DNA of 32,000 bases from Flavobacteriaceae bacterium (GTDB lineage: Bacteria > Bacteroidota > Bacteroidia > Flavobacteriales > Flavobacteriaceae), in the NCBI GenBank assembly GCA_965224465.1, contig OZ245049.1, forward strand, positions 1,710,001-1,742,000, read 5' to 3'. Below are positions 4,630 through 28,982 of this stretch, one piece after another; within the stretch, counting starts at the first letter, position 1; each line of letters begins with the position of its first letter. Both the position numbers and the translations under genes were made by a program. The notes beneath the pieces were generated by a model. It did not search any database, had not been told where the DNA came from, and saw only the letters and a program-made list of their open reading frames with translations.

Positions 4630-5115
4630 ATGAAAAACAAACAGCAGATCCGTGTAAACAACCAGTTTAATTTTGTCCTGAGTCAAAACGACTTAGACGA
4701 TTTAGACATTCTAATCTTAAAAAAAGACAAGAAACATGTACTCTTAAAAAACGCTTCACATAGCATTGTTATTTCTAAAAGAGATTTTAAATTAAAAGCT
4801 TATGAGATTAACATAGATTCAGAAGTATACAACGTTGTTATAAAAAATGAATTGGACACACGTATTAAAAAAATGGGTTTTTCCATTGAAAAAACAGCTA
4901 TTTCTAAAAGCTTTAAAGCTCCTATGCCCGGATTTATTTTAGACATCCTTGTAAAAAAAGGTGCGCACGTTCAAAAAGGAAGTCCTATACTTATCCTAGA
5001 AGCGATGAAAATGGAGAATACGATAAATGCACCCATGGAGGGACGTATAAAATCCATTCATGTAACAAAAGGAGAGAATGTTGAGAAAGGAACACTTTTA
5101 ATAGAAATGGAATAA
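4630..5115 (+). CDS. biotin carboxyl carrier protein (biotinyl/lipoyl domain) of an acyl-CoA carboxylase
   Basis: Biotinylation motif EAMKMEN sits in a C-terminal ~70-aa lipoyl-like domain (APMPGFILDILVKKGAHVQKGSPILILEAMKMENTINAPMEGRIKSIHV). It is the first gene of a three-gene carboxylase cluster. Confidence 0.85.
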   Translation: MKNKQQIRVNNQFNFVLSQNDLDDLDILILKKDKKHVLLKNASHSIVISKRDFKLKAYEINIDSEVYNVVIKNELDTRIKKMGFSIEKTAISKSFKAPMPGFILDILVKKGAHVQKGSPILILEAMKMENTINAPMEGRIKSIHVTKGENVEKGTLLIEME

Positions 5116-5275
5116 TACCAATGACAATCCAAAATGACCGATATAAATAGTTTGTTTTACGTTCTAGCATTGTTAAAAAACAGAACGATAGCAAAGCTAT
5201 CCATCCATTTTTTACCAAGTTAAAACAAAAAATAATTCCATTCCTAAACCGTCACTTGGAAATGTATTTGGTATA
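5115..5275 (+). repeat. MITE-like dispersed repeat, copy A (~160 bp, terminal inverted repeats)
   Basis: Starts ATACCAATGACAATCCAAAATGACCGATATAAATAG and ends CCGTCACTTGGAAATGTATTTGGTATA. It is alignable over its full length to 6 other copies in the window. It fills the BCCP-accC intergenic gap and begins at the BCCP stop codon. Confidence 0.8.
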
Positions 5276-5298
5276 ACATTGATAACACAAAAACAAGC

Positions 5299-6747
5299 AT
5301 GAAAAAAATACTCATAGCAAACAGAGGAGAAATAGCCATTAGAGTGATGAAAACAGCTCATAAAATGGGAATTAAAACAGTTGCTGTATTCTCTGAAGTA
5401 GACAGAAACTCCCCCCATGTCAGATACGCCCATGAAGCAGTTTATATCGGCGAATCTCCCTCAAACAAATCCTATTTACTAGGAGATAAGATAATAGAGG
5501 CAGCCTTAAATTTAGGTGTGGACGCAATACACCCCGGATATGGATTCCTAAGTGAAAATGCTTCCTTCTCTGAAAAAGTAGTAAAAAACGGACTCATTTT
5601 TATAGGACCAAATGCAGATGCAATCCGAATAATGGGAAGTAAATTGGCTGCAAAAAAAGCCGTGAAAAATTACAATATCGCTATGGTTCCAGGAATTGAC
5701 AAAGCCATTACTGATGTACACGAAGCTACCGAAATCGCTATTGAAATGGGATTTCCTATTTTAATAAAAGCATCTGCTGGCGGTGGCGGAAAAGGAATGA
5801 GAATTGTTGAAAACAAAAAAAACATAGCGGAACAAATGGCGCGCGCTATAAGTGAAGCAACAAGCGCATTTGGTGATGGGTCTGTGTTTATAGAAAAATA
5901 TATCGCATCACCCCGTCATATTGAAATTCAAATAATGGCAGATACTTATGGAAACATCATTCATTTATTTGAACGAGAATGCAGTATTCAAAGACGCCAT
6001 CAAAAAGTAATAGAAGAAGCACCTTCTACCGTATTAACACCCCAGTTGAGAAAAAAAATGGGAGCAGCTGCCATTCTCGTAGCAAGATCGTGCAACTATA
6101 TTGGGGCAGGGACTGTTGAGTTTTTATTAGACAAGAATCAAAATTTCTTTTTCTTAGAAATGAACACTCGCCTACAAGTAGAACACCCCGTTACTGAATT
6201 CATCACAGGATTGGACCTAGTTGCCTTACAAATCAGCATAGCAAGAGGCGAAAAACTCCCTCTTTCACAAGAGGATGTTCAAATAAAGGGGCATGCCATC
6301 GAACTTCGAGTGTACGCAGAGGATCCCTTAAATAATTTCTTACCAAGTGTTGGTTTTTTAAAAACATACCAACCACCTAAGGGACCCGGTATTCGAGTAG
6401 ATGATGGTTATGAACAAGGCATGGATATCCCCATTTATTACGACCCAATGCTCTCCAAACTTATCACCTACGGAAAAACGAGATCCGAGGCAATCCAAAA
6501 AATGCTATCCGCAATTAAAGACTACAAAATAGAGGGGGTAAAAACTACGTTGTCCTTCGGGAAATTTGTCTGTGAACACGAGGCTTTTACTTCTGGAAAT
6601 TTCAATACACATTTTGTGAAAAATTTCTACTCACCTCAACTTTTAGAAGAAACACTTAAAGAAAAAGCAAAACTCGCAGCACTCATAGCTTTACAGGCTT
6701 ATATGGAAGACAAATCTAAATTACGCATCCCTACAATCACACCCTAA
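5299..6747 (+). CDS. accC: biotin carboxylase subunit (ATP-grasp)
   Basis: N-terminus KILIANRGEIAIRVMKTA; glycine-rich loop KASAGGGGKGMR; EMNTRLQVEHPVTE. At 482 aa it has the usual AccC size. Confidence 0.93.
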   Translation: MKKILIANRGEIAIRVMKTAHKMGIKTVAVFSEVDRNSPHVRYAHEAVYIGESPSNKSYLLGDKIIEAALNLGVDAIHPGYGFLSENASFSEKVVKNGLIFIGPNADAIRIMGSKLAAKKAVKNYNIAMVPGIDKAITDVHEATEIAIEMGFPILIKASAGGGGKGMRIVENKKNIAEQMARAISEATSAFGDGSVFIEKYIASPRHIEIQIMADTYGNIIHLFERECSIQRRHQKVIEEAPSTVLTPQLRKKMGAAAILVARSCNYIGAGTVEFLLDKNQNFFFLEMNTRLQVEHPVTEFITGLDLVALQISIARGEKLPLSQEDVQIKGHAIELRVYAEDPLNNFLPSVGFLKTYQPPKGPGIRVDDGYEQGMDIPIYYDPMLSKLITYGKTRSEAIQKMLSAIKDYKIEGVKTTLSFGKFVCEHEAFTSGNFNTHFVKNFYSPQLLEETLKEKAKLAALIALQAYMEDKSKLRIPTITP

Positions 6748-6756
6748 ATTACACCT

Positions 6757-8292
6757 ATGAAAACAAAAAGCTTAGAAGAAAAAATTAAACTCGCTCATTT
6801 AGGAGGAGGACAGCTACGTATAGATAAACAACACCATAAAAAGAAGCTAACAGCAAGAGAACGAATCACCTATTTATTAGACGAAGAATCCTTTGAAGAA
6901 ATGGGCTTGTTAGTAATACACAGAAATACAGATTTCGGCACAGAAAAAGAACTGTATTACGGAGATGGAGTAATCACTGGGTACGGTACTATAGACCATA
7001 GACTTGTATATGTTTACGCACAAGACTTTACCGTTTTCGGAGGATCGTTGTCTGAAACACATGCAGAAAAAATTTGTAAAGTAATGGATCACGCCCTAAA
7101 AGTAGGCGCCCCTATTATAGGACTCAACGATTCTGGAGGAGCACGGATTCAAGAAGGCGTAAAATCTCTAGGTGGCTATGCAGAGATATTCTACCGAAAC
7201 GTACAAGCTTCTGGGGTTATCCCACAACTTTCTGCTATTATGGGACCTTGCGCTGGAGGCGCCGTCTACTCCCCTGCCATGACCGACTTTACCCTAATGG
7301 TAGAAAACACAAGCTATATGTTTGTTACAGGACCAAGTGTGGTTAAAACAGTTACAAACGAAAATGTTAGCGCCGAGGCTCTGGGAGGAGCAAGTACACA
7401 TGCTAGCAAATCTGGTGTCACACATATTACATCAACAAACGACATTACCTGTTTAGAAGATTTAAAAAAATTATTGAGTTATCTTCCACAAAACAACGAG
7501 CAAAAAACCGCGAAAATCCCTTTCGAATTAGGAGAAGAAATGCGTACGTCTTTAGAAACCATACTTCCAGACAACAGCAACAAACCCTACGATATGCATT
7601 CTGTAATTGAAGAAATCATAGATAAAACTTCTTTTTTTGAAATCCATAAAAAGTATGCCGAAAACATTATTGTAGGATTTGCAAGGTTGGCTGGGAAAAG
7701 CATTGGAATCATCGCAAACCAACCAAAGTGTTTGGCAGGATGTTTGGATGTAAATAGTTCTAAAAAAGGAGCTCGGTTTACCCGTTTTTGTGACAGTTTC
7801 AACATTCCATTATTAGTGCTCGTAGATGTCCCTGGATTCCTACCTGGAACAGACCAAGAATGGAATGGAATAATCACCAACGGAGCAAAACTTTTATACG
7901 CATTAAGCGAAGCAACTGTCCCTAGAATTACGGTAATTATAAGAAAAGCCTACGGGGGTGCTTACGATGTAATGAATTCTAAACACATAGGCGCCGATTT
8001 AAATTTAGCTTGGCCAACTGCAGAAATTGCTGTTATGGGAGCCAAAGGCGCAAGTGAAATTATCTTTAAAAAAGAAATTGCTACAGCCGATGACCCTGCC
8101 CTAAAACTTTCAGAAAAAGAAGCCGAATATGCCCGTACTTTTGCCAACCCTTACACTGCTGCAGAACGCGGTTTTATAGATGAAGTTATCCAACCAAAAA
8201 CTACACGACGTAAACTTATAAAAGGCTTTACAATGCTCGAAGGAAAACGCGTACAACAACCTAAAAGAAAACACGGAAACATTCCCTTATAA
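6757..8292 (+). CDS. pccB: acyl-CoA carboxylase carboxyltransferase subunit (propionyl-CoA carboxylase beta / methylmalonyl-CoA carboxyltransferase 12S family)
   Basis: 511 aa. Motifs seen: [73 protein letters not shown]. All are typical of PccB-type carboxyltransferases. Confidence 0.9.
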
Positions 8293-8444: not shown

Positions 8445-9259
8445 ATGTTGGATTTATCTAAAGTAAAAATGGTGGTTACCGATATGGACGGTACTTTACT
8501 AAATGATTGGGGAGAGGTAAGCCCTGAATTTTTTCGATTGTTTACGCTATTACAAAAACACAACATACATTTTGTTGTTGCAAGTGGTCGTCAATATTTT
8601 AGTATGTTAGAAAAACTATACAGCATAAAAGATGCTATTACTATTGTTGCAGAAAATGGAGGAATGACCAATTATAATGGTGAAGTAATCTCTACCAGTA
8701 CCATTTCTCAAAAACAAATTAACATTATTATAGACACCTTAAGAAAAACTTCGGGTGCCTATATTGTTTTATGTGGTAAAAAAAATGCCTATATCGAAAC
8801 ATCTGACAAAAAATTCATCGAAATATTCAAAGAATATTACACTAAATTTGAACATGTTAAGGATTTAAAAAGTGTTACTGAAGACAAAATATTTAAGATT
8901 GCCACGTATCATTTTAAAAATTCCACCGACTATATTTACCCCTTTGTAGAACATTTAGAAGATGAAAATTTAGTAAAAATATCAGGGAAAAACTGGTTAG
9001 ACATATCTTCTCCATCTACCAATAAAGGACAAGCTATTGAAAATTTACAACAACTATTAACATCACAAAAGAAGAAACAATGGTTTTTGGTGATTACAAT
9101 AACGATTTAGAAATGTTAGCACAAGCCCATTTTAGTTACGCCATGGAAAACGCTTGTGAAGATGTAAAAAAAGCAGCACGTTTTCACACAAAAAGTAACA
9201 ACAACAATGGGGTGGAATTTATATTAGATAAACTTATAAAATCCAAAGAGCTCAATTAA
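8445..9259 (+). pseudogene. Cof-type HAD-IIB hydrolase interrupted by a 1-nt frameshift near 9057-9062
   Basis: Frame 0 gives MVVTDMDGTLLN...ASGRQYFS...NKGQAIENLQQLL and stops at 9110. Frame 2 is open from 9041 and continues ITKEETMVFGDYNNDLEMLAQAHFSYAMENA...KSKELN* to 9259. Together they form a complete Cof-like protein if one base is restored around TTAACATC. Confidence 0.8.
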
Positions 9260-9412
9260 TTCAATTACAATCCATAATAACCTATATAAATAAGTTGTTT
9301 TACGCTCTAGTGTTGTTAAAAATCAGAACGATAGTTAAGGCTATCCATCCATTTTTTATCTAGCTAAAAAAAAATTATTTATAAACCGTCACTTGGAAAT
9401 ATATTTGGTTTA
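9259..9412 (+). repeat. MITE-like dispersed repeat, copy B
   Basis: Starts AATTCAATTACAATCCATAATAACCTATATAAATAAG and ends CCGTCACTTGGAAATATATTTGGTTTA. It begins at the HAD stop codon. Confidence 0.75.
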
Positions 9413-9436
9413 ATTTAATCACAGCATCTCAAACAA

Positions 9437-9471
9437 AAAAAGCTAGTAAACATAACATTTACTAGCTTTTT
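9437..9471 (+). terminator. rho-independent terminator-like hairpin
   Basis: AAAAGCTAGTAAA / TTTACTAGCTTTT arms with an 8-nt loop, followed by T-rich sequence. It lies downstream of the HAD gene and repeat copy B. Confidence 0.55.
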
Positions 9472-9484
9472 ATCTATTATTTAA

Positions 9485-10473
9485 TAGGGTTACCCTCTTA
9501 AGTCGCAATATATTTGATTGATTTATAGGTTATTGGTTTTTCTTTACACATTCTTTTTAGTAGGTTTTCTAAGATGTTTTCTCTAAAATTGAGTCGATTA
9601 AATCGATAGAAATACTCTTGAATGTATTGATTTATATACTCTTTCTCACAATACGAATGAACGCCTCTTAACCAATTTTTAAAGTTTCTTATCTGAAAAT
9701 GTAGCATCTTAAAATTCTCACCATTATTAGATAATATTTGTGTTAAATTTGGGAAGTTCTTTTTTAAAGGTTTATATCCTGACCAGCCATCTGTAACTAT
9801 ATTGGCATCAAACTTTATATGTTTCTCAAATATTGGTTTTAATGATTTGCAACTATAATCTTCTATCACCTTTGCGTATGCTCTGCCTGGTTTACCATTT
9901 CTATTTTCAATGGCAATTACAACTCTAATTTTAGTAGCTGATTTACTACGTCCTTGCTCTCCTTTTTTTGGTGTACCTATTTCAAACTCGTCTACATGAA
10001 CTTCTTTTTCTAAAGGATATTTCTCACTACTTTTCATTGCTTCTTGTACTTTTCTTCTAAACAACCAAGCTGTCATCTGTTTAACACCGTGCCTTTCTGC
10101 TAACCAAATACTATTCGCTCCTTTCTTACTGGTAACTATATCATAAGTCGTTTCAAAGGCTTCTACAATACCAAATTTAACTTTATGAAATAGAGTGTTC
10201 GCAGTTGGAGACTCATCATATCCGCATTTTGTACAACGTCTATTATACGCTCTTTTTCCTTTTAAAAACTTTGTGTTTTTACATTTAAAACAGGAAAAAC
10301 CTTCTTCCCATTTTACAGATGATAAAAAAGATAAACATAAACTCTCTTCTCCAAACTTAGTGTGAAATTCTTTACGAGATAATTCTTTTAATATTTTCAT
10401 AGCTTTCTTTTTCTAAAAGTAAAAAATCCTTTCAGAAAAACAAAATATTAGTGAGATTTAAATAGGTAACCCT
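9485..10473 (-). mobile_element. IS1595-family insertion sequence flanked by a 9-bp direct repeat
   Basis: Imperfect terminal inverted repeats (T)AGGGTTACC..TTAA..TC at 9485-9510 and 10448-10473. Direct repeat ATTATTTAA at 9476-9484 and 10474-10482. The element contains a single transposase ORF. Confidence 0.8.
9498..10400 (-). CDS. IS1595-family transposase (N-terminal zinc ribbon plus DDE domain)
   Basis: The N-terminus has CxxC...CxxC (CFKCKNTKF...RRCTKCGY) and SIWLAERHGVKQMTAWLFRRKV. The central/C-terminal part is ISXO2-like (VHVDEFEIG, IVTDGWSGY). These are typical of IS1595 transposases. Confidence 0.85.
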   Translation of the reverse strand: MKILKELSRKEFHTKFGEESLCLSFLSSVKWEEGFSCFKCKNTKFLKGKRAYNRRCTKCGYDESPTANTLFHKVKFGIVEAFETTYDIVTSKKGANSIWLAERHGVKQMTAWLFRRKVQEAMKSSEKYPLEKEVHVDEFEIGTPKKGEQGRSKSATKIRVVIAIENRNGKPGRAYAKVIEDYSCKSLKPIFEKHIKFDANIVTDGWSGYKPLKKNFPNLTQILSNNGENFKMLHFQIRNFKNWLRGVHSYCEKEYINQYIQEYFYRFNRLNFRENILENLLKRMCKEKPITYKSIKYIAT

Positions 10474-10492
10474 ATTATTTAAATCTAAACTC

Positions 10493-10768: not shown

Positions 10769-10779
10769 AGTCCTCTAAA

Positions 10780-13473: not shown

Positions 13474-14280
13474 ATGAAAACATATAAAGACCAACTAGGA
13501 AGAACCATCGAACTTACCAAGACTCCAATGCGAATCATAAGCATTGTCCCTTCTATTACAGAATTATTGCACGATTTAGGGCTGGAAGATAAAATTGTGG
13601 GGATTACTACCTTCTGCGTTCATCCGTATCATTTTTCAACAACAAAAACGAGTGTAGGAGGTACAAAAAAAGTTAATTTACAAAAAGTAAAAAAATTAAA
13701 CCCTGACTTTATCATCTGTAACAAAGAAGAAAACACTCCTGAAATGGTAAAGGAGCTCTCAGAAATCGCTCCTGTATATGTTTCGGATGTAAATACGATC
13801 CAGGACTCTTTGGATTTAATCCAACAACTTGGAAACATCCTTTCTTGCAGAACAGAAGCAATTAATTTAGTTACAAAAATCAACTATAAATTAGATGATT
13901 TTAAACTGTACATCCATAACAAACCTATGCGTAAAGTCGCCTATTTTATTTGGGCAAACCCGTGGATGGTTGCAGGAAACAACACTTTTATAAACGAAAT
14001 ATTAAAACTTAATAAATTCGAAAACATTTATCAAAACAGAGAAAGATACCCTACAATTAAATTAGAAAAGATTCGTTTTGACGGAGACCCTCGCATTGTT
14101 TTATTGCCTTCAGAACCCTTCAAATTTAACGATGATCACGCCTTTGAAATTGCCAGTTACGCCAATAGATCTATGACTGTTTTTGCAGACGGAGAATATT
14201 TTAGCTGGTATGGTTCTCGTTTATTAAAAGCTTTTGATTACTTTAAAAAATTACAAGAAAAAATAGACAGCAGTTTTTAA
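13474..14280 (+). CDS. TroA/BtuF-like periplasmic-binding-fold protein (cobalamin/siderophore-binding family), no obvious signal peptide
   Basis: RIISIVPSITELLHDLGLEDKIVGITTFC...NPDFIICNKEENT has the pattern of helical-backbone binding proteins. The start lies 3 nt after pyrF. Confidence 0.6.
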   Translation: MKTYKDQLGRTIELTKTPMRIISIVPSITELLHDLGLEDKIVGITTFCVHPYHFSTTKTSVGGTKKVNLQKVKKLNPDFIICNKEENTPEMVKELSEIAPVYVSDVNTIQDSLDLIQQLGNILSCRTEAINLVTKINYKLDDFKLYIHNKPMRKVAYFIWANPWMVAGNNTFINEILKLNKFENIYQNRERYPTIKLEKIRFDGDPRIVLLPSEPFKFNDDHAFEIASYANRSMTVFADGEYFSWYGSRLLKAFDYFKKLQEKIDSSF

Positions 14281-14298
14281 AACTACTGTCTATTTTTT
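14258..14298 (+). terminator. rho-independent terminator overlapping the stop codon of the preceding gene
   Basis: Arms ATAGACAGCAGTT / AACTACTGTCTAT (1 mismatch), 5-nt loop containing the TAA, followed by a T5-6 run. Confidence 0.65.
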
Positions 14299-15917: not shown

Positions 15918-16433
15918 TACATATATTTTTTAGATGATACAAAAGTCTCATAAACAGACATCATTCAGAGAAACAGCACATGCATAATGTACTGCAAACA
16001 TCTTAAATAATTAAACAAAAATCATGCCGAATAACTTATATTGAAACTCACCCGATTTTATTCTATTCTTTACAACTTACTCCTTATCAAATAAGTAGTC
16101 AATTACCTCACCAGCAAAGACACGAAGCATGTTCCCAAAAGAATATGTTCTATTATAAAAGGAATCCCCTCAATAAGGATTTAACATATTTCCTCGAAAA
16201 CGATTATGCCATTGTTTAAAAAACACGGCAAACTCAGCACAAAACTGATCTTTTACGAAAAAAACAAATTCAGTAGTAGTAATACCAATTTACAATGAAA
16301 TGAGACTAACTGCGCTATTTATTTAAAAAAACAAACCTGCTTACACCAATGTAACTCACAGTAGTTCAGCACAAAAAACAAAGATACTCTTTTTTAAACG
16401 ATAGCAAAACAAACTTTATTACTCCAAGGATAA

Positions 16434-16600
16434 ACACCAACTAAAACCCAAAATAACCGATATAAATAATCTGTTTTACGTTCTAACGTTGTTAAAAAAT
16501 AGAACGATAGCTAACCAAGGCGCTACCCTTAGATTATTTGCCTAGCTAAAACAAAAAATAATTCCATTTCTAATCCATCACTTGGAAAATTACTTGGTAT
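16434..16600 (+). repeat. MITE-like dispersed repeat, copy C (variant internal loop)
   Basis: Starts ACACCAACTAAAACCCAAAATAACCGATATAAATAAT and ends CCATCACTTGGAAAATTACTTGGTAT. The TAGCTAA..GCCTAGCTA internal stem is kept, but the loop sequence differs from other copies. Confidence 0.75.
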
Positions 16601-20172: not shown

Positions 20173-20180
20173 ATAGGTCT

Positions 20181-20226
20181 ATAAACCAATTACATTCCAA
20201 AACAACCGATATAAATAGTTGATTTC
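20181..20226 (+). repeat. MITE-like repeat, copy D, truncated after ~45 bp
   Basis: ATAAACCAATTACATTCCAAAACAACCGATATAAATAGTTGATTTCA matches the left end of copies E/F/H. It then switches abruptly to effector-gene sequence. Confidence 0.7.
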
Positions 20227-20385
20227 ATGAAGGATTCAAAAGGAGAAAATCACCCTGATTCAGGAGCAATAGATTTAATGAAATACTATAATAACGACCC
20301 AAAATATATTGATTATAAAAGGGCTAGTTCTTCGGAAAAAGACATTCCAGGTTTACTTTGGCTCACTAAATTAGAATTAAAATGA
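20227..20385 (+). pseudogene. orphan 3' fragment (last 52 codons) of an HExxH-effector paralogue
   Basis: MKDSKGENHPDSGAIDLMKYYNNDPKYIDYKRASSSEKDIPGLLWLTKLELK* aligns to the last ~55 aa of the 429-aa protein at 21929-23218. It lacks the HExxH region. Confidence 0.75.
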
Positions 20386-20755
20386 AGTATATTGTATTAT
20401 TAATTTTTATTTCTTTTTTTAGTTGTGAAAATAAAATAAAAACTAAAATAAAAGGCATTATCTATATCAATAAAGACCTTCCTGTTTTAAACATAGAAAT
20501 TGGCTCAAAAATTATATTTTCACCTATGCATTCTAAGTATGCTAAAAGGGTAGGTTTGGTTTTAAAAAAAACGGAGAATTTGAATTCGAAATAAAAAGAA
20601 CAGAGATGAAAGGAGACAATAATTTCGCTGTCATTTTTAGAAAAAAAGGATATAAAGATGAATACAGATTTGTAGACATTAGGAAGGGTGGAGAAATTAA
20701 TTTAGATACAATCTTTTTAAAACAAACCGACAGTATAACGTTGCCTAATAACTAA
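20382..20755 (+). pseudogene. small lipoprotein (putative immunity, family 1), frameshifted at an A8 tract
   Basis: Lipobox FFSC, with an ATGA overlap to the upstream fragment. Frame 0 stops at 20594. Frame 2 continues NGEFEFEIKRTEMKGDNNFAVIFRKKGYKDEYRFVDIRKGGEINLDTIFLKQTDSITLPNN* to 20755. The paralogue at 25704 has A9 at this position and stays in frame there. Confidence 0.7.
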
Positions 20756-20841
20756 GATTCGTGTGGTGCGTAGCGCTCAGAACGAACATAATGTTGACTA
20801 TACCGACTCAAAAGATAATACTATGGGGATTTCCCGAAGTT

Positions 20842-20997
20842 ATACCAAAATAAAATAACTGATACAAATAGTTTATTTCACGTTCTAGCGTTGTTAAAAA
20901 ACAGAACCATAGCTAAGGCTATCCATCCATTTTTCGCCTAGCTAAAACAAAAAATAACTCCATTTCTAAACCATCACTTGGAAATGTAGTTGGTATA
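20842..20997 (+). repeat. MITE-like dispersed repeat, copy E
   Basis: Starts ATACCAAAATAAAATAACTGATACAAATAG (left TIR partly deleted) and ends CCATCACTTGGAAATGTAGTTGGTATA. Confidence 0.75.
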
Positions 20998-21259
20998 ATT
21001 AAAAAATAGTTTCGTATGTAATAAATTTTTCTGCGAAAATTTCAGAGTTTTTTTGCCATAAAACTCATTCTAGGTAGCCCCTTAAGCACATCTATTAAGT
21101 ACTCATAACCGTTGTGTCATAAGCGCACTGTACCCATAGCAATTATTGTTTATTTTGTTATACTAATAAAGAAGCCATATTATAAGGCAGGAAAACAGGA
21201 ATCTCCCCTTTAAAACAAGCATGTAAACAAAATTAATCAGAATAAAAACACAATAACAC

Positions 21260-21289
21260 ATACGCGTATAACATTGTTTTATATATTTG
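21260..21289 (+). promoter_or_regulatory. candidate promoter/operator: 10-bp perfect palindrome ATACGCGTAT followed by a TAnnTTTG-type -7 box (TATATTTG)
   Basis: Palindrome at 21260-21269 and TATATTTG at 21282-21289, about 175 nt upstream of the Hcp-like ATG. The whole segment is duplicated at 25194-25223. No clear -33 TTTG element was seen. Confidence 0.35.
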
Positions 21290-21462
21290 ACCTACGCTTA
21301 AAAACAAACACGCCCTAACAACAAGCCTTCCCTACATTGTAAACTAAATGGATACACTATCAAGTTTAGAATTGTTATTGTGAGGATATGTGTATTACAA
21401 AGCATTGACACACTCCAAGAACTTAATACAACATATAACAACACAACATATAACAACACAAC

Positions 21463-21927
21463 ATGGTAAAAGCAATATTAATAATAGAAGGAAAAGAAGT
21501 AAACGTACGTTGGTTTACCATCAATTTTAATCAAGGAGCAAATCCTAACGGCAGACCCTCACAGAAACCCATATTTGTAGGTTTAAAACTAATTATAGAA
21601 ACTAGAAAAGACCTAAATCTTACTGACTGGGCCTTTTCCTCTAGACAAACAAAACAGATAGTATTACATCTTAATTCCGTTATTGTGGGAGGCAAAACAA
21701 GAAAAATATTTTTCTATGACTGTCATCTTGTAAACTGGAAAACAAATTTTTCTTCTACAGGATCAGATCCAATGACGGAAACTTTAGAAATCACCTGTGC
21801 TGGTGTTGAAGATTCTAACTCGTTTGGTGTGTATTCTGCCTCTTGGAGAGAAACATTTCCTAATCTAGAAGAAAATAAAAACAATAACCAAATAATTGAA
21901 CTAAAAGTAAAAACTAATATATCATAA
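21463..21927 (+). CDS. Hcp/TssD-like tube protein (Bacteroidetes T6SS-iii type)
   Basis: 154 aa. MVKAILIIEGKEVNVRWFTINFNQGANPNGRPSQKP..GLKLIIETRKD...IFFYDCHLVNWKTNFSSTGSDPMTETLEITCAG follows the pattern I recall for Bacteroidetes TssD: K-A-x-L-x-I-x-G, x-F-x-Q-x-x-D/N-x-x-G-R/K-P, and a late PM..L.I.A motif. Confidence 0.62.
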   Translation: MVKAILIIEGKEVNVRWFTINFNQGANPNGRPSQKPIFVGLKLIIETRKDLNLTDWAFSSRQTKQIVLHLNSVIVGGKTRKIFFYDCHLVNWKTNFSSTGSDPMTETLEITCAGVEDSNSFGVYSASWRETFPNLEENKNNNQIIELKVKTNIS

Positions 21928-21928
21928 A

Positions 21929-23218
21929 ATGCCATATTTTATCCCTTTAGGAGTACCTGACTTTAACGGAAAAAAAGAAAGAGACTTTTTCCAGTTTACA
22001 TACGAAATAGAAGATAATGACGCTCTAGAATTACTTATAGAAATACGTGACGGCAGCAATGTTATATATAAAGAAAAAATAACAGATTGCTCAAAATTAA
22101 TCCAAGGAGAACATATTTGGCAATGGGACGGTTTTGATAATCATGGAATTTTAGACACTGCAAAATTCACTAATGCAAAAAGTTTAAATTTTTACGTCAC
22201 AGGAAAAGATGATGCTGGAAACTACGACCGATCTAAAACTGATTTTAAAGCAGAATATGACCAAGTAGATTGGGTAGATGTTAAAATTGATAAAGTCTCT
22301 AAACGTATTGACGTAACATTACGTGTAAATTTAACTGATGGAGGTGAAAAAGGAACTGAAACCAATTATAAATTCGAGAAAATAAGCCCAGGTGATTATC
22401 ACAATCCAAAACTATCGGCACCGAAAAAAATATATCCTTGGAGTAAAATCCCTAACAAAGCATTAGAATACTACGGAGAAACTCCTATAAAAACAAGAAC
22501 TAAAAGTTTTGAAGAATTAAAAGAAATGGTTCTAGATGGTATAAATATTTACTGGAGTCGACATCAAGGTAATATTGGTAAAAATATACAGATCAATAAT
22601 AAAAAATACGAAATTTTCGTGAATGCTATTAATATAACGGATTCTAATAAAAGTTTGGATGACATTCCTCTTATTTACAACACAAATAGTCCTTGGTCTA
22701 GATCTGGAAACACTGGAGGTAGCTACAGTGACGGGAATTTTGATGACGAAATAATGGGAATACTTCCTAATGGTTTAGTTCAACGAATTTCTTTCAATTC
22801 AGGCTATATTTATCATGATAATTGGAAATCATGGTACAAAGGACACTACATACATAAAACAAAAGGTTGGTTATTTAATTCGGAGGTTAATGAAACTAAA
22901 GACTTTGAAGAAACATCTGCTCACGAAATTGGACATGAAATACTTCAAGCTTACGCAGGAACAGTCTATTCGTGGCAACATAAAGGTAGTTCTTATTATT
23001 TACCTCAAGATATTAAACCTGTAGGAGAAGAAACTTTTAAAGAGGAATATATAAACATTGATTATATGGAAAACTCAAAGGGTGAAAACGTACCTACCAG
23101 TGGAGAAATTGACTTAATGAAATACTATAACGATTATTCTGATTACAAAAATAGAATTATAGCTAACGAAAAAGACGTACTCAGTTTATTATGGTTAACT
23201 AAACTAAATCTAAAATGA
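21929..23218 (+). CDS. putative secreted effector with a C-terminal HExxH zincin-like domain
   Basis: 429 aa with no signal peptide, starting 1 nt after the Hcp-like stop. The N-terminal segment has an FlgD-Ig-like signature (LIEIRDGSNVIYKEKI...GEHIWQWDGFDNHG). The C-terminal part has TSAHEIGHEILQAYAGTVYSWQHKGSS. HExxH plus a conserved His 14 residues later is also kept in the paralogue fragments at 26905 and 27670. Confidence 0.6.
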   Translation: MPYFIPLGVPDFNGKKERDFFQFTYEIEDNDALELLIEIRDGSNVIYKEKITDCSKLIQGEHIWQWDGFDNHGILDTAKFTNAKSLNFYVTGKDDAGNYDRSKTDFKAEYDQVDWVDVKIDKVSKRIDVTLRVNLTDGGEKGTETNYKFEKISPGDYHNPKLSAPKKIYPWSKIPNKALEYYGETPIKTRTKSFEELKEMVLDGINIYWSRHQGNIGKNIQINNKKYEIFVNAINITDSNKSLDDIPLIYNTNSPWSRSGNTGGSYSDGNFDDEIMGILPNGLVQRISFNSGYIYHDNWKSWYKGHYIHKTKGWLFNSEVNETKDFEETSAHEIGHEILQAYAGTVYSWQHKGSSYYLPQDIKPVGEETFKEEYINIDYMENSKGENVPTSGEIDLMKYYNDYSDYKNRIIANEKDVLSLLWLTKLNLK

Positions 23219-23670
23219 TATATATACTAATATTCACTTTTATCTTTTTTTCTATTTTACTAATAACTAACCCTTTGTTTAGAAAAAAAAGAATAATTTC
23301 AAAAATAATTATTTATATCATTTTCACTCTAGTAATCTTCTTAATTACCGTTTTATTTATAATGTATTTATGGAACACAAATATTGATTATCGCGAACAA
23401 AAGAAAATGATGAATTCTCATAATATTTATATTTTAAACACCCTAAATAACCCAATAAAAAACACAATAACAATACTTGAAAACAAAAACAACAAAGATA
23501 CAATTATATCAAATACTAATGGTTTTGTAAACTACAACAAAGTAAAAAACAAGACAATTATAATCCAAGCTAAAGGACATTTAACAAAGACAATAGCTGT
23601 CAATAAAATTAATAATGACACAATACGTCTAAAACAAATACAGACAAATAACCACCTACACAATAAGTAG
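23215..23670 (+). CDS. small two-TM membrane protein, putative cognate immunity protein
   Basis: ATGA overlap with the effector stop. Two hydrophobic helices (IYILIFTFIFFSILLITNPLF; IIIYIIFTLVIFLITVLFIMYLW) are followed by a ~90-aa beta-rich domain (NPIKNTITILENKNNKDTIISNTNGFVNYNKV...IIIQAKGHLTKTIAV). That domain resembles the CarboxypepD_reg-like pattern of the downstream lipoproteins. Confidence 0.5.
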   Translation: MIYILIFTFIFFSILLITNPLFRKKRIISKIIIYIIFTLVIFLITVLFIMYLWNTNIDYREQKKMMNSHNIYILNTLNNPIKNTITILENKNNKDTIISNTNGFVNYNKVKNKTIIIQAKGHLTKTIAVNKINNDTIRLKQIQTNNHLHNK

Positions 23671-23882
23671 GTAAAATACTGATATCCATCCATTTGATTC
23701 CGACTCAAAAGATGCTATCATCAGCATAATATAAATAACTGGGCTAATGTCTACTGGTCATAATAAATGTAGGCTATTTTTAGAGCTGAACTTAATTATT
23801 TTTTATACTACAAGGAACTCCTTTTAGGATTGTTTAAATGTAACAGCAGGGCAGAATAAACCTTTTATGAGGATTAAATAAA

Positions 23883-25008
23883 GCTTAAATTCAACTAATA
23901 AACGCAACTTTTCGATTTGATTCTATGATGGTTATATTTTCAAAACAGAAAAGTAGGAAAACCTACCTTTCTTGTCTTGATGGATATGTATCTTACGGTC
24001 TCAAATCTCGAAAAAAGAAGTTGTATGAAACACATCACCCAAGCGCAAAGATACACAATTTGTTGCATGTTAAAACAAGGTTATAAACAGGTTGAGATAG
24101 CAGCTGCTATAGGAAAAGACAAGTCTGTTATTAGCAAAGAGATTAAGCGTAATTCAGACAAAAGAAATGGAGTTTACAAGCATGAATTAGCCCAAAAAAA
24201 GTATGCTAAACGTCATAAAGAAAAGCCTAAAAGAAAACGCTTTACAGAAGATATTCAACAAGCAATAGAGTTGTTATTGCGAGACGATTATAGTCCTGAG
24301 CAAGTAGTTGGTGTCCTAAAAAAACAAGGTAAAGAAACGGTGTCTATTGAGCGTATATATCAGCATATTAGGGAAGACAAGAGGAATGATGGTGATTTAC
24401 ATACACACCTTCGCAGACAGGGAAGGAGATATAGAAAACGTGGCTCATCAAAGGATTCTAGAGGGGTTATAAAGAATCGTATTAGTATAGAACAACGCCC
24501 TGAAGTTGTTGAACAAAGAAATCGATTTGGAGATTTAGAGGTCGATTTAATCATAGGTAAAAACCATAATCAAGCCATACTTACCGTAAATGATAGAGCT
24601 TCTGGAATGCTTAAAATGAAAAAAGTAAGCTCTAAAGAAGCAGTTGTTGTCACTAAAGCTATCAATGAAATATTAGAAGACTGGAAGCCTTATCTACATA
24701 CTATAACAGCTGATAATGGAAAAGAATTTGCAGGCCATGAGCAGGTTGCAGAAAATTTATGTATTGATTACTTTTTTGCGCATCCATATCACTCTTGGGA
24801 AAGAGGATCTAACGAAAATTTAAATGGTTTGATTAGACAATATTTTGCCAAAGGAAGTGACTTTACAAACCTAACAGATCAAAGAATCAAAGAGGTAGAA
24901 ACAAAATTAAATAACAGACCTAGGAAGAGACATAAATATCAAAACCCTATATTTGTAATGGAACAATTATTATTTAACTAAAAGTTGCGTTTGTGACTTG
25001 AATTCAGC
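23883..25008 (+). mobile_element. IS30-family insertion sequence
   Basis: Imperfect ~29-bp terminal inverted repeats: GCTTAAATTCAACTAATAAACGCAACTTT (23883-23911) and the reverse complement of AAAGTTGCGTTTGTGACTTGAATTCAGC (24981-25008). A single transposase ORF lies inside. Confidence 0.8.
24025..24981 (+). CDS. IS30-family transposase
   Basis: N-terminal HTH (MKHITQAQRYTICCMLKQGYKQVEIAAAIGKDKSVISKEIKRN). DDE region (GDLEVDLIIG, ITADNGKEF, HSWERGSNENLNGLIRQY). The start is taken at the ATG at 24025 rather than the TTG at 23977. Confidence 0.88.
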   Translation: MKHITQAQRYTICCMLKQGYKQVEIAAAIGKDKSVISKEIKRNSDKRNGVYKHELAQKKYAKRHKEKPKRKRFTEDIQQAIELLLRDDYSPEQVVGVLKKQGKETVSIERIYQHIREDKRNDGDLHTHLRRQGRRYRKRGSSKDSRGVIKNRISIEQRPEVVEQRNRFGDLEVDLIIGKNHNQAILTVNDRASGMLKMKKVSSKEAVVVTKAINEILEDWKPYLHTITADNGKEFAGHEQVAENLCIDYFFAHPYHSWERGSNENLNGLIRQYFAKGSDFTNLTDQRIKEVETKLNNRPRKRHKYQNPIFVMEQLLFN

Positions 25009-25193
25009 AAGTGTTTAATTCTGCATTTTATTTTTAAAAAGCACTCCAAGTATTAAGTTCTCTGTTTTTATTAGTAGAAACCACAAACCCACGTTTACCA
25101 ATTAATATCATGTTTTAAAAACAGTACGATGAAGTTCAAAACTTTACAATAACTTAAAGAACAAAACTACATCGAAATTAAAACACAGAAACA

Positions 25194-25223
25194 CATACGC
25201 GTATAACATTTTTTCATATATTT
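25194..25223 (+). promoter_or_regulatory. second copy of the palindrome plus -7-box leader, now without a downstream Hcp gene
   Basis: ATACGCGTAT at 25194-25203 and TATATTTG at 25216-25223. About 140 bp (25185-25332) aligns with 21250-21395 upstream of the Hcp-like gene, then runs straight into repeat copy F. Confidence 0.3.
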
Positions 25224-25332
25224 GAACTGCATTTTAAAAAATAAACACGCCCTAATCATAAGCTAAACCAACTGTGAACTAAATAAATATGCTATCAAGT
25301 TTAGAATTGCTATTGTGAGAACATTGGGCATT

Positions 25333-25497
25333 ACACCAATTACAATCCAAAATAACCTATATAAATAGTTTATTTCACGTTATAGCATTGTTAAAAAAAA
25401 ATAAAATGACAGCTAAGGCTATCTATCCATTTTTCGCCTAGCTAAAACAACAAACAACTCCATTTCTAAACCGTTACTTGGAAATGTAGTTGGTATT
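25333..25497 (+). repeat. MITE-like dispersed repeat, copy F
   Basis: Starts ACACCAATTACAATCCAAAATAACCTATATAAATAG and ends CCGTTACTTGGAAATGTAGTTGGTAT. The left flank is the Hcp leader copy. The right flank is effector codons equivalent to ~aa 352 of the intact gene. Confidence 0.8.
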
Positions 25498-25707
25498 AAA
25501 CCTGAGAGGAAAGAATCATTTAAAGAAGAATATATTAATAGAGATTTTATGAAAGATACCTCAGGTGAGAACTCCCCTGATTCAGGAGCAATAGATTTAA
25601 TGAAATACTATAATAACGACCCAAAATATATTGATTATAAAAGGGCTAGTTCTTCGGAAAAAGACATTCTAGGTTTACTTTGGCTCACTAAATTAGATTT
25701 AAAATGA
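25497..25707 (+). pseudogene. orphan 3' fragment (~69 codons) of an HExxH-effector paralogue
   Basis: (I)KPERKESFKEEYINRDFMKDTSGENSPDSGAIDLMKYYNNDPKYIDYKRASSSEKDILGLLWLTKLDLK* aligns with DIKPVGEETFKEEYINIDYMENSKGENVPTSGEIDLMKYY...LLWLTKLNLK of the intact gene. There is no HExxH and no credible start codon. Confidence 0.75.
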
Positions 25708-26079
25708 AGTATATTGTATTATTAATTTTTATTTCTTTTTTTAGTTGTGAAAATAAAACAGAAACTAAAATAAAAGGCATTATCTATATCAATAAAGACC
25801 TTCCTGTTTTAAACATAGAAATTGGTTCAAAAATTATATTTTCACCTATGCATTCTAAGTATGCTAAAAGGGTAGATTTAGTTTTAAAAAAAAACGGAGA
25901 ATTTGAATTCGAAATAAAAAGAACAGAGATGAAAGGAGATAATAATTTTGCTGTCATTTTTAGAAAAAAAAGGATATAAAGATGAATACAGATTTATAGA
26001 CATTAGGAAGGGTGGAGAAATTAATTTAGATACAATCTTTTTAAAACAAACCGACAGTATAACGTTGCCTAATAACTAA
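25704..26079 (+). pseudogene. small lipoprotein (putative immunity, family 1), frameshifted at an A8 tract
   Basis: Near-identical to 20382-20755. It is in frame through the first A-tract (A9) but has A8 where the other copy has A7 (25964-25971). This gives a stop at 25979, and the remainder (KGYKDEYRFIDIRKGGEINLDTIFLKQTDSITLPNN*) reads in frame 1 to 26079. Confidence 0.7.
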
Positions 26080-26165
26080 GATTCGTGCGGTGCGTAGCGC
26101 TCAGAACGAACATAATGTTGACTATACCGACTCAAAAGATAATACTATGGGGATTTCCCGAAGTT

Positions 26166-26328
26166 ATACCAAAAAAAAAAACCGAAATAACTGATATAAA
26201 TAGTTTGTTTTAGGTTCTAGCGTAGTTGTAAAAAACAGAACAATAGCTAGGCTATCCATCCATTTTCCGCCTAGCTAAAACAAAAAATAATTTCATTTCT
26301 AAACCTTCACTTGGAAATGTAGTTGTAT
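26166..26328 (+). repeat. MITE-like dispersed repeat, copy G
   Basis: Starts ATACCAAAAAAAAAAACCGAAATAACTGATATAAATAG and ends CCTTCACTTGGAAATGTAGTTGTAT. It has a perfect internal stem TAGCTAGGC...GCCTAGCTA. Confidence 0.75.
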
Positions 26329-26372
26329 TACTTCAATTTATAAAGCATTACATATCTAAATAACACATCGTT

Positions 26373-26834
26373 ATGAAATACATATTAATCTTAATTATAC
26401 CATTCTTATTATTAGCATCTTGCGCTCACAACATTCCTATAGCAAATTTAAAATTTAATGAGATTAAAAAAAACAATGAAATCAACAATTATTATTCCTT
26501 AAACTTTTCATCAGATATAGAGCTTATTCATAATTTATCAGAAAAGCATACAATGGCAAGGTTTGATTGTTTTTTTAAAAACGGGAATATTGAACAAAAG
26601 GATTTCACAAACTATAACGGTTATGTATTAGTATCCGTTGGAGAATTAAAAAAAGCTTCAAATATTTCTTCAGCACAACTTTATAATTACACGGTGAATG
26701 TTACCTTTGATAAAAATAAAGGTGAATTTTTAGACGAGAAGGATATTCCTGAAATTATTAAATTACTCAATAAAAAACCAAAATATTTAAACTGTGCAAT
26801 CACAGCAGTAACATATTTACAAACTACAAAATGA
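26373..26834 (+). CDS. hypothetical lipoprotein (possible orphan immunity protein of a different family)
   Basis: Signal peptide and lipobox MKYILILIIPFLLLASC. I recognise no motif. It is embedded among the effector/immunity cassettes. Confidence 0.5.
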   Translation: MKYILILIIPFLLLASCAHNIPIANLKFNEIKKNNEINNYYSLNFSSDIELIHNLSEKHTMARFDCFFKNGNIEQKDFTNYNGYVLVSVGELKKASNISSAQLYNYTVNVTFDKNKGEFLDEKDIPEIIKLLNKKPKYLNCAITAVTYLQTTK

Positions 26835-26904
26835 TATATATCAAACACTATGTGCTTACCAAAAAAGGAATTGAAAAACCTGATAAAATAACGCTTTTAA
26901 ATAA

Positions 26905-27297
26905 CTAATTATTAGCGAAACACATAGCATCAAGCCTACACACCCTATTTCCGATGCCAACTCAAAAGAAGCTGATTTTGCAATTATGTACAGAACAAAA
27001 ATCATATATAACACCAATTACAATCCAAATCCTGAGGATAAAGAACTTAAATACACATCAGCTCACGAAATAGAGCATACAATATTAAAAGCTTACGGGG
27101 GAACATTTTATAGTTATGGACATAAAGGAAGTGTAAACACTTTTACCCAGACTGAAAGCTCAGACGCAGAAGAATACTCTAAAAAGGGAGAAATAGATAG
27201 TATGCCATATTACACAAATGTTGTTCCTTTAAGTCAGTACGAAAGGCTCTGTTCTGCGGAAAAAGATGCTATAAGTTTAATCTGGTTAACTAAATGA
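26905..27297 (+). pseudogene. orphan 5'-truncated HExxH-effector paralogue (divergent variant)
   Basis: The frame is open from 26905: ...ISDANSKEADFAIMYRTKIIYNTNYNPNPEDKELKYTSAHEIEHTILKAYGGTFYSYGHKGS...GEIDSMPYY...EKDAISLIWLTK*. It aligns with mid-region INITDSNKSLDDIPLIYNTN and the HExxH region of the intact gene. About 75 residues between these two regions are missing. Confidence 0.65.
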
Positions 27298-27665
27298 GAA
27301 TTAAAATGAGAAAATTCCTGTTTTTTATAGCTGTAGTTTATCTGATTCAGTGTAAATCAAATATAAATTACTACCAAGGCTTTATTTATGATATGAATAA
27401 TAATCCCGTAATAAATTTAAAAGTTTACGAAAAACACAATAAAGAAAATTATTCATTGACAAATAAAAAAGGATATTTTAAAATATATACAAAAAGGAAT
27501 AACATTAAACGATTTCTTTATGTTAAACTAAATGAGTCAAGAATTATTGATTCTATACAAATTACTGGAATTCAAGGAGGAGAACGAATTAAATATAGTT
27601 TTATCGAAGGAAGAAAAGATACATTATTTATAACATTGCCTAAACAACTAAATATTGCGCGCTAG
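27294..27665 (+). CDS. small lipoprotein, putative immunity protein (CarboxypepD_reg-like pattern)
   Basis: ATGA overlap with the upstream fragment. Lipobox LIQC (the start may be the second ATG at 27306). YQGFIYDMNNNPVINLKVYEK...TNKKGYFKIY resembles carboxypeptidase-regulatory-like beta-sandwich domains. Confidence 0.55.
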   Translation: MRIKMRKFLFFIAVVYLIQCKSNINYYQGFIYDMNNNPVINLKVYEKHNKENYSLTNKKGYFKIYTKRNNIKRFLYVKLNESRIIDSIQITGIQGGERIKYSFIEGRKDTLFITLPKQLNIAR

Positions 27666-27669
27666 GTAG

Positions 27670-28053
27670 TACTCAAGCCCCCTTGGAGATGGTAATGAAT
27701 GGTTCTATGATAAAATAGTTGATGCAAATGAAGAATATAAAGAAACCTCAGCTCATGAGATAGGTCATGAAATACTGCAAGCTTATGCGGGTAATGTGTT
27801 TTCTTGGCAACATAAAGGCAGCTCTTATTATATGCCTCAAGATAAAAAGCCAATAGGCAAAGAATCATTTAAAGAAGAATCTATTAATAGAGATTATATG
27901 GAAGAAACTAAAGGGGGAAATTACCCTCATAGTGGTGAAGAAATAGATTTAATGAAATACTTTCCCGAAACAAAACCCAATAATTTTTATGATAAACGTG
28001 TTGCAAATAAAAAAGATGTACTTGGGTTATTATGGCTTACAAAATTAAAATGA
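27670..28053 (+). pseudogene. orphan 5'-truncated HExxH-effector paralogue (close to the intact copy)
   Basis: The frame is open from 27670, directly after the preceding stop: GDGNEWFYDKIVDANEEYKETSAHEIGHEILQAYAGNVFSWQHKGSSYYMPQDKKPIGKESFKEESINRDYMEE...IDLMKYF...KKDVLGLLWLTKLK*. There is no ATG upstream of the HExxH. Confidence 0.7.
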
Positions 28054-28393
28054 AACTTATAATAATTTTTGCAGTATCATTTCTTACTTCATGTGTTGAA
28101 GACACCTTAAGAGATGAAGTAAAGGCTTGTGTTTACTATAAAAACGTCCCCGTTAAAGATGCTATAATATTAACATGGCAAGGCTATGAAAAAGGTTTTA
28201 CCAAGGAAACCTCTACAGACTCCTTAGGTTATTTTTATTTAAAAAAATCAGTAGATACAATTTAGGGTCAGAATCACGTACTATTTCTCAGAAATTTTTA
28301 ATTAAAAAAGAAGATTTAATATCCGATACTTTGTCAACACTTGATTATAGATGTATCGATAAAAAAAATGACACAATATATTTAAGAAAATAA
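28050..28393 (+). pseudogene. small lipoprotein (putative immunity), frameshifted at an A7 tract
   Basis: ATGA overlap; MKLIIIFAVSFLTSC lipobox. Frame 0 stops at 28265. With one extra A at 28241-28247 it would read GYFYLKKISRYNLGSESRTISQKFLIKKEDLISDTLSTLDYRCIDKKNDTIYLRK* to 28393, which parallels the C-terminal halves of the 27294 and 28457 proteins. Confidence 0.6.
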
Positions 28394-28456
28394 CGTCCCT
28401 AGCAATTGTAACCATTGCACAAAAGAATAAATTTGCCACACAAAATTAGAATTAAA

Positions 28457-28807
28457 ATGAAACACATAGCATCTATTTACTTACTCATTTGTTTTTTCTC
28501 TTGTAAAGAAAAAGAGCTTAATTATTATCATGGAGTTATTGTTGACAAAAATTTAATTCCTATTTTAGGTGTTACTGTTAAAACAGATTATGCTGATTCT
28601 GTATATACAAAAACAACAAAAAACGGTTATTTCAAATTACCAAGAAAAGCCAATAGATATGGAAGTTTAGTTTTAAAAAAAAAAGGATATAAAACGGATA
28701 CCGTAAGGACTATATGGACTCAAAGCGGTGAATTTATAGACTATAGTTTTATTAATAATAAAATAGACACCGTATTATTAATAAAAACAACGGCATACAA
28801 TAACTAA
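28457..28807 (+). CDS. small lipoprotein, putative orphan immunity protein (CarboxypepD_reg-like pattern)
   Basis: MKHIASIYLLICFFSC lipobox. YHGVIVDKNLIPILGVTVKTDYADSVYTKTTKNGYFKLPRKANRYGSLVLKKKGYKTDTV is a classic CarboxypepD_reg-like signature. It is preceded by a ~25-bp degenerate remnant of the effector 3' end (TTGCCACACAAAATTAGAATTAAAATGA vs TGGCTCACTAAATTAGAATTAAAATGA). Confidence 0.6.
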   Translation: MKHIASIYLLICFFSCKEKELNYYHGVIVDKNLIPILGVTVKTDYADSVYTKTTKNGYFKLPRKANRYGSLVLKKKGYKTDTVRTIWTQSGEFIDYSFINNKIDTVLLIKTTAYNN

Positions 28808-28826
28808 CAGCAACATACATAATACA

Positions 28827-28982
28827 ATACCAATACTAAACAACCGATATAAATAGTTGATTTCACGTTATAGCGTTGTTAAAAAACAGAACCATAGCTA
28901 AGGCTATCCATCCATTTTTCACCTAGCTAAAACAACAAACAACTCCATTTCTAAACCGTTACTTGGAAATGCAGTTGGTATA
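28827..28982 (+). repeat. MITE-like dispersed repeat, copy H
   Basis: Starts ATACCAATACTAAACAACCGATATAAATAG and ends CCGTTACTTGGAAATGCAGTTGGTATA. It marks the right edge of the island. Confidence 0.75.

Follow-up and report, generated by a model that had tools for sequence, protein, structure and literature searches.

The 32,000-nucleotide stretch of Flavobacteriaceae bacterium analysed here (assembly GCA_965224465.1, contig OZ245049.1, positions 1,710,001 to 1,742,000 of the forward strand; hereafter the window, within which all window positions are counted) carries a short dispersed repeat which we consider, with a probability of about 0.9, to be a MITE (miniature inverted-repeat transposable element), that is, a small, non-coding and non-autonomous transposon, and not a new structured RNA. 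The family is a new one of a familiar kind and occurs within a single marine lineage of Flavobacteriaceae. The features that define a MITE are all present, as far as they could be tested: small size, absence of coding capacity, terminal inverted repeats (TIRs), a target-site duplication (TSD), orthologous sites that are filled in one genome and empty in another, and dispersed copies. The initial annotation of this DNA, made from its letters alone, had offered a transposon, a structured RNA or both; the TIRs, the TSD and the filled and empty sites bear out the first of these, and the second has found no structural support.

The repeat family and its ends

Repeat finding gave 6-7 co-linear copies, and with MAFFT alignment and an nhmmer profile built from the copies we recovered seven full copies in the window, each of them on the + strand. 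If TACC...GGTA are taken as the ends and the pieces are lettered along the window, these are copies A (5116-5273, 158 bp), B (9260-9410, 151 bp), C (16435-16599, 165 bp), E (20843-20995, 153 bp), F (25334-25495, 162 bp), G (26167-26327, 161 bp) and H (28823-28980, 158 bp). Beyond them are a fragment that retains the left 44 nt only (copy D, 20184-20227) and a solo left end of 19 nt (27012-27030, CACCAATTACAATCCAAAT), both also on the + strand; the full copies and the fragment have nhmmer E-values from 1e-38 to 1e-48. The dispersed repeat in a single orientation that had been proposed is therefore real, with seven full copies and the truncated copy D, and its ends lie within a few bases of those first given. 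The right-end motif (21 nt) has seven matches in the window against 0.00 expected, and the left-end motif (20 nt) has four against 0.02. Two solo TIR pieces had also been suggested: the one at 27012-27030 is solid, 18 of its 19 bases being those of the consensus and the whole being an exact match to the left end of copy F, but the one at 16282-16298 is indistinguishable from chance. Similarly, the density of copies is high in this window, as had been noted, yet this is a local property, since syntenic relatives have none or one copy per ~45 kb.

The consensus is 159 nt long and the defined copies, in the window and in other genomes together, range from 73 to 193 bp. None of the full copies contains an open reading frame (ORF) of 80 amino acids or more in the ORF list of the window, which upholds the earlier statement that the element has no coding capacity. 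The element is a long imperfect palindrome, and the nhmmer profile matches each copy's own reverse complement. Its TIRs, of ~23 bp, run TACCAATTACAATCC...GGAAATGTATTTGGTA (left and right TIR sequences TACCAATTACAATCCAAAATGAC and GTCACTTGGAAATGTATTTGGTA; the end pair can also be given as TACCAAWTACAATCC...GGAAATGTAWTTGGTA), and 84.9% of cells pair when the 20 TIR pairs are scored over 14 copies, so that the inverted-repeat ends are real and imperfect, just as they had been described.

A direct duplication of 3 bp flanks 11 of 15 copies, which come from at least five genomes. Loci outside the window being referred to by L-numbers, five copies (A, B, H, L002 and L005) have TAA as the duplicated trinucleotide, five (F, G, L001, L003 and L006) have TTA and one (L007) has TAC. 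When right flanks were shuffled among copies, the mean number of matches was 4.9, and 11 or more were reached in 0.06% of trials (p = 6e-4); an inverted-repeat match of the 3-bp flanks was seen in one pair only. As direct matches exceed those in the shuffles and the inverted match is limited to this pair, the flanking trinucleotide is a duplication and not an extension of the TIRs. Insertion sites are mostly TAA or TTA, and often coincide with stop codons: in A and B it is the upstream gene's TAA stop that has been duplicated, and the L002 copy likewise abuts a stop codon.

Filled and empty orthologous sites

The contigs encoding the closest IcmF and biotin carboxylase proteins, which keep synteny with the window for more than 40 kb, were used for comparison. 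The closest relatives of the IcmF-like protein are from Flavobacteriaceae (88-92% identity), followed by Lutibacter-like ones (~80-83%). By nhmmer, the copies of the window are absent from the orthologous sites of the syntenic relatives, in which a single copy was found elsewhere, in L013/L015, with COX3 on one side and a hemerythrin/PAS gene on the other.

Copy A separates the gene for the biotin carboxyl carrier (stop 5113-5115) from that for the biotin carboxylase (start 5299), both identified by Pfam, and is flanked by TAA at 5113-5115 and 5274-5276. The window here reads ...GGAA TAA, the element of 158 bp, TAA, 22 nt and ATG, and the empty site of L018 reads ...GGAA TAA, 22 nt and ATG; the two spacers are equal in length and, counted by eye on the alignment, identical at 14 of 22 positions with no gaps. 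Copy B has used the TAA stop codon of a HAD hydrolase gene as its target (TSD TAA at 9257-9259 and 9411-9413) and has mutations in both tips (TTCAA...TTGGTT). The window has ...CAAT TAA, the element of 151 bp and TAA..., and the site is empty in L018, L020 and L023, where the stop codon directly meets the spacer; the convergent terminator hairpin beside the copy (9437-9471) is kept in all syntenic relatives. The L013/L015 copy, in turn, is missing from L011 and L017, where both flanks align at more than 90% and exactly the element is lacking. The check for empty versus filled sites that the initial annotation had called for thus gives three sites (A, B and L013/L015) at which one genome has the element and syntenic relatives have a precise empty site in the corresponding place; two of the three (A and B) use an upstream TAA stop.

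Copy C, which belongs to the CCTTAG subfamily and itself has a 6-nt insertion, is located 126 nt upstream of a gene for a fused isobutyryl/methylmalonyl-CoA mutase (IcmF-like), and its flanks (AAA and TGA) do not preserve a TSD. No recognisable copy occurs in that intergenic region in the relatives, where the alignment is too diverged for breakpoints to be placed, and a search of the relatives' intergenic regions for degenerate relics of copy C gave non-significant matches only (E ~1).

The HAD hydrolase gene adjoining copy B (8445-9259) is 815 nt long and its L018 orthologue 816 nt; a base is lacking near position 9059, and the resulting frameshift puts the last ~50 residues in another frame, which reflects either a pseudogene or a sequencing error.

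Copies in other genomes and age of the family

A scan of one genome per species, for 185,579 species, with a 23-base pattern to which each of the seven right ends conforms gave six matches only, all of them in three metagenome-assembled genomes (MAGs) named 'Flavobacteriaceae bacterium NORP' (North Pond). A looser pattern applied to a metagenome collection gave one true copy, L007. In all, eight further copies were found outside the window, in the NORP MAGs and in metagenome contigs, and reading the loci matched by the two patterns revealed a whole element in each. L006 is a 73-bp mini copy made of both ends only, with its TTA/TTA duplication intact, and L003, L004 and L007 have a different inner segment. 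In L001, a contig of NORP167, a second and partial copy consisting of the right half (7865-7942, + strand, nhmmer E = 0.002) is separated by 123 nt from the full copy (7582-7741, - strand), to which it is opposite in orientation and head-to-head; a fuzzy search for extra end pairs in all the loci collected returned nothing but this partial, inverted copy. Copy A had no BLASTN match in plasmid and phage collections, two pattern scans of viral contigs gave no match, and a text search of the literature for the right-end 12-mer retrieved unrelated eukaryotic papers only.

Copies are 72-92% identical to each other, with a mean of 84% within the window and 81% between genomes; the last 40 columns of the alignment are the best conserved (94% identical, against 88% for the interior). 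Because the copies are only this similar, we infer that the family is old or has several master copies, rather than having been active recently.

A 27-nt stretch identical to the right end of the consensus (AAACCGTCACTTGGAAATGTATTTGG...) was also seen at 978-1005 of L008 (Ga0190273_10159076), where the rest of the element is absent. This is an unrelated and G+C-richer contig of 1.4 kb, the main ORF of which resembles, by eye, a fungal HET-domain protein, and the match may be due to chance, a chimera or contamination.

The unsupported reading as a structured RNA

A first alternative, very improbable and already refuted for the most part, is that the element is a cis-acting structured RNA (a leader, an attenuator, an mRNA stabiliser or a small RNA gene) kept between genes for its functional fold. 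Single copies do fold better than shuffled sequences on the + strand, inconsistently so (z = -5.5, -3.4 and -2.0), copies A and F have a weak hairpin and then a T-run at their centre, and within the window every copy is co-directional with an adjacent + strand gene. Nevertheless, the - strand folds better than the + strand, and the suggested comparison with Rfam, for example with motifs such as Flavo-1, gave no match to the element on either strand (Rfam 15, at the gathering threshold or at E<=1). The RNAalifold consensus of 14 copies has an energy of -6.5 kcal/mol with a covariation term of +0.39, which lends no support, and the covariation check that had likewise been advised showed four pairs changed on both sides against 4.1 in shuffled controls, in a test of compensatory changes whose power is limited by its 14 sequences.

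Two inner hairpins had been described, and both are present in the consensus, but they show no sign of structural selection: their variation mostly breaks pairs, and over the TIR pairing and both hairpins together 83.9% of cells are paired against 82.3% in shuffles. They are moreover dispensable, as both are missing in L006 and the first is missing in L007. The loop of copy C, whose replacement within a retained stem had been taken as a hint of selection, is no such hint, CCTTAG being simply the usual variant among copies from other genomes. Cells with G·U (25) and with A·C (29) are about equally frequent and favour neither strand, as expected of a DNA palindrome and not of an RNA read from one strand. 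A scan for sigma-70 promoters and terminators gave weak and inconsistent matches inside the copies, the model being ill-suited to Bacteroidota promoters. The idea that orientation follows transcription was also considered and rejected, because the element is antisense to both neighbouring genes in L004 to L007 and in L013; finally, a leader or stabiliser kept for its function sits poorly with orthologous sites that are empty in relatives. The structured-RNA reading is therefore not supported.

Points against a MITE, and the orientation of the copies

Four observations weigh against the interpretation as a MITE. At an identity of 72-92% among copies, the family need not be active at present. 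Four of the 15 copies (C, E, L004 and L013) have no matching TSD; C, L004 and L013 may be older or mutated, and E is accounted for as a chimera (see below). An autonomous element with matching ends did not emerge from the right-end pattern scan of one genome per species, in which all matches were MITE-sized copies. An autonomous insertion sequence (IS) with matching TIRs, the search for which had been proposed as a check, was likewise not among the matches of the genome, metagenome and viral pattern scans, which did not extend to the complete source genome and yielded MITE-sized copies only. The two IS elements of the window were considered as parents and discarded, since the TIRs of the IS1595-family element (ends TAGGGTTACCC...) and of the IS30-like element (ends AGGATTAAAT...) show no resemblance to those of the repeat; that the repeat shares no ends with either of them had been stated correctly. 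Lastly, the window's nine pieces all point one way, as does the L013 copy of the syntenic region, and simple cut-and-paste transposition predicts no such preference.

This orientation bias is real locally: some seven independent insertions of the window have the same orientation, as does the L013 copy when set in this chromosomal frame (two-sided p ~0.01-0.03). Over the whole window, genes in either orientation have a GC skew at third codon positions of about -0.33 as read on the + strand, so the + strand, which carries ~70% of the window's coding sequence, is the C-rich strand and the copies are placed on it, irrespective of how the genes around them are directed. By convention, the C-rich strand is the lagging strand. 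Placement on the C-rich strand is also found in L003 to L006 and in L013, and the opposite (G-rich) placement in L001, L002 and L007, so that in this test of the replication strand six regions agree and three disagree; relative to neighbouring genes, orientation outside the window is mixed.

A uniform strand such as this could be produced by an element of the IS200/IS605 or REP/RAYT type (PATE or BIME), in which hairpins transpose as single-stranded DNA on the lagging-strand template. We regard this as even less probable than a structured RNA, for elements of those types have neither TIRs nor a target duplication, whereas here the direct 3-bp duplication is significant and the TIRs reach the very tips of the element; in addition, three of the eight loci outside the window are on the G-rich strand, and the Pfam annotation of the window reveals no Y1 or RAYT gene nearby.

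The Hcp/toxin/immunity island

The 3' part of the window contains an 8.8-kb block (20173-28990) of Hcp, toxin and immunity genes that is absent from the syntenic relatives, in which the IcmF gene is followed at this position by an AHSA1-domain gene and then by RecQ, both on the - strand. The block encodes Hcp (TssD; 21463-21927, Pfam) and a 429-residue HExxH protein with no Pfam match (21929-23218), with small ORFs downstream of the latter, and also contains the IS30-like element, copies E, F and G, the solo left end and copy H. At least three 5'-truncated paralogues of the HExxH gene are present, each ending in ...LWLTKLxLK and overlapping the next small ORF by ATGA (repeat family D5), and the island resembles an effector linked to Hcp that is accompanied by an array of orphan toxin/immunity cassettes.

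Copy D, copy F and the solo left end at 27012 abut 5'-truncated toxin fragments. Copy D is joined to its fragment at a 7-nt microhomology (GATTTCA), and the solo left end is fused to a 5'-truncated HExxH fragment. Copy F (TSD TTA/TTA) has a left flank resembling the upstream leader of Hcp (25164-25324 matches 21229-21389) and a right flank consisting of a toxin 3' fragment that begins at residues ...IKPERKESFKEEY. In copy G (TSD TTA/TTA), an A-run replaces part of the left TIR and the right tip has one G deleted; copy H (TSD TAA/TAA) is the final feature of the island ahead of RecQ's 3' end (- strand). Since each of F, G and H keeps its own TSD, these three arrived by transposition. Copy E, by contrast, has mismatched flanks (TTA and TAA) and a degenerate left TIR, and its left ~35 nt together with ~640 nt upstream match the region upstream of copy G at 95-97% identity; the D-to-E segment likewise shows 95-97% identity to the F-to-G segment, the outer parts of the elements being different. 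Judged from these alignments, copy E looks like a chimera produced by gene conversion or duplication. The left part of D and the right part of E could also be the halves of one insertion split by a cassette, an explanation that is not needed and that we set aside, D ending at a microhomology inside a toxin fragment. Copies of the element thus served as, or sit at, recombination junctions.

That the element is instead an integron-like or rAID-type recombination site capturing toxin/immunity cassettes, with the dispersed copies as by-products, is as improbable as transposition in single-stranded form: five full copies and two fragments do lie at module boundaries of a block that the relatives lack, and three left ends do adjoin truncated toxin fragments, but the block has no recombinase gene (its sole mobility gene is the IS30-like transposase), the copies at housekeeping sites (A, B and L013) are simple insertions with a TSD, junction D falls at a 7-nt microhomology inside the element and not at a fixed crossover point, and F, G and H each have a matching TSD of their own.

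Returning to the MITE, an extension of that reading, which we hold to be doubtful though clearly less so than the alternatives discussed above, is that the element inserts or survives in one orientation relative to the replication fork, and that pairs of copies act as portable homology by which Hcp-linked toxin/immunity cassettes are assembled, duplicated and perhaps mobilised. If this were true, the island of 8.8 kb that separates the IcmF-like gene from RecQ would form a module bounded and shuffled by MITEs.

The IS30-like element itself (23870-25022) lies inside the toxin/immunity block, encodes a protein with HTH_38 and rve domains and has imperfect TIRs of ~43 nt. It is followed by a duplicate of the stretch upstream of Hcp (25164-25324), mentioned above for the left flank of copy F.

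Proposed mechanism

A transposase encoded elsewhere would most likely recognise the ~23-bp imperfect TIRs; the element would be cut out or copied and then inserted where a TWA trinucleotide (TAA or TTA) is cut with a stagger of 3 nt, and repair of the gaps would duplicate this trinucleotide on both sides. Insertions inside genes would be removed by selection, and, because TAA is also a stop codon, this could explain why several copies lie exactly on the stop codon of an upstream gene, each such insertion presumably regenerating the stop from the left TSD. In the island, copies in direct repeat would then become substrates for homologous and microhomology-mediated recombination, which may have truncated copy D, left behind the solo end at 27012 and made a chimera of copy E. 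As to the enzyme class, the 3-bp TWA duplication, set against the TSD lengths generally known for IS families, allows us to guess at a DDE cut-and-paste transposase with a 3-bp stagger, either IS5/PIF-Harbinger-like or IS30-like.

IS5-family ends have G-rich tips, unlike the TACC...GGTA tips seen here, and no transposase is linked to the element. Duplications of 2-3 bp are made by the IS5 subgroups ISL2 and IS1031 and by IS30 (ISfinder tables), and the IS30-like element that is present in the window has unrelated TIRs. A 3-bp TSD is also made by PIF/Harbinger elements (PMC2213677). A TSD of 3 bp with a preference for TWA, as found here, is the hallmark of PIF/Harbinger transposons, to which the Tourist-like MITEs belong; we use this as a mechanistic analogy and make no claim of membership.

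Comparison with known MITE families

Correia and RUP elements have TA as their TSD and differ in this from the present family, in which it is 3 bp (TWA). Like the element described here, the bacterial MITEs Correia of Neisseria, RUP of Streptococcus pneumoniae and Nezha of cyanobacteria are ~100-200 bp long and non-coding, have TIRs and flanking direct repeats and occupy A+T-rich intergenic DNA (PMC3184786; PMC10969869), and as here their long stem-loop fold arises simply from the TIRs. The mobility of Nezha was inferred from filled and empty orthologous sites (PMC3184786), by the same logic as ours. For the present element no sequence similarity was seen to Rfam, to plasmid and phage collections or to the literature text searched; its hosts are marine or subseafloor Flavobacteriaceae, and no parent IS is known.

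Chunjie of Geobacter uraniireducens is reported to be inserted within an operon (Chen et al. 2008, PMC2516098, cited in PMC3184786), and copy A is similarly inside an operon, between the biotin carboxyl carrier and biotin carboxylase genes, with the downstream genes intact. Chunjie is nonetheless an unrelated family that differs in its TIRs and in the length of its TSD, which is 9 bp (PMC3184786). In mobilisation units flanked by MITEs, for example the IMU element cited in the same article (PMC3184786), two or more copies in direct orientation bracket an accessory block, as they do the 8.8-kb island; the island differs in that the TSD at its outer ends is ambiguous (ATA or TAA at D, TAA at H) and in that H has a complete TSD of its own. 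We obtained no evidence of the 8.8-kb block moving as a unit.

A survey has listed 81,380 MITEs in Bacteroidota genomes (PMC11602168). Because such automated surveys already list tens of thousands of them, the current understanding of these elements is unchanged by our analysis. It adds, for the poorly studied marine and subseafloor lineage of Flavobacteriaceae, a well-defined family with a consensus, TIRs, a 3-bp TWA duplication and filled and empty sites. The element accounts for many of the longer intergenic repeats of the region and is a sequence that annotation or assembly pipelines, or screens for RNA motifs, could mistake for a regulatory RNA. Its insertions at stop codons and in the carboxylase operon are examples of how MITEs find tolerated sites, and the copies at junctions of toxin/immunity cassettes hint at a role in the shuffling of genes for interbacterial competition.

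Genomic setting

The window has a G+C content of ~33%. According to Pfam, its genes are, in order, a PAS hybrid kinase, the biotin carboxyl carrier, copy A, the biotin carboxylase and a carboxyltransferase; then the HAD hydrolase, copy B, the IS1595-family element and, on the - strand, ClpS, PrmA and TIM; then OMP decarboxylase, a periplasmic binding protein, DUF4197 and DUF4136 (- strand) and copy C; and, in the 3' part, the fused IcmF-like mutase, copy D, the 8.8-kb block and RecQ (- strand). Two long, perfect and bidirectional terminator-like hairpins are located between convergent genes, at 14258-14298 and at 9437-9471. Just past the second of these, the conserved convergent terminator, lies the IS1595-family element (9485-10474), which encodes an ISXO2-like DDE domain and a zinc ribbon, has ends TAGGGTTACCC and is flanked by a perfect 8-bp duplication, TTATTTAA (9477-9484 and 10475-10482), at a site that is empty in relatives.

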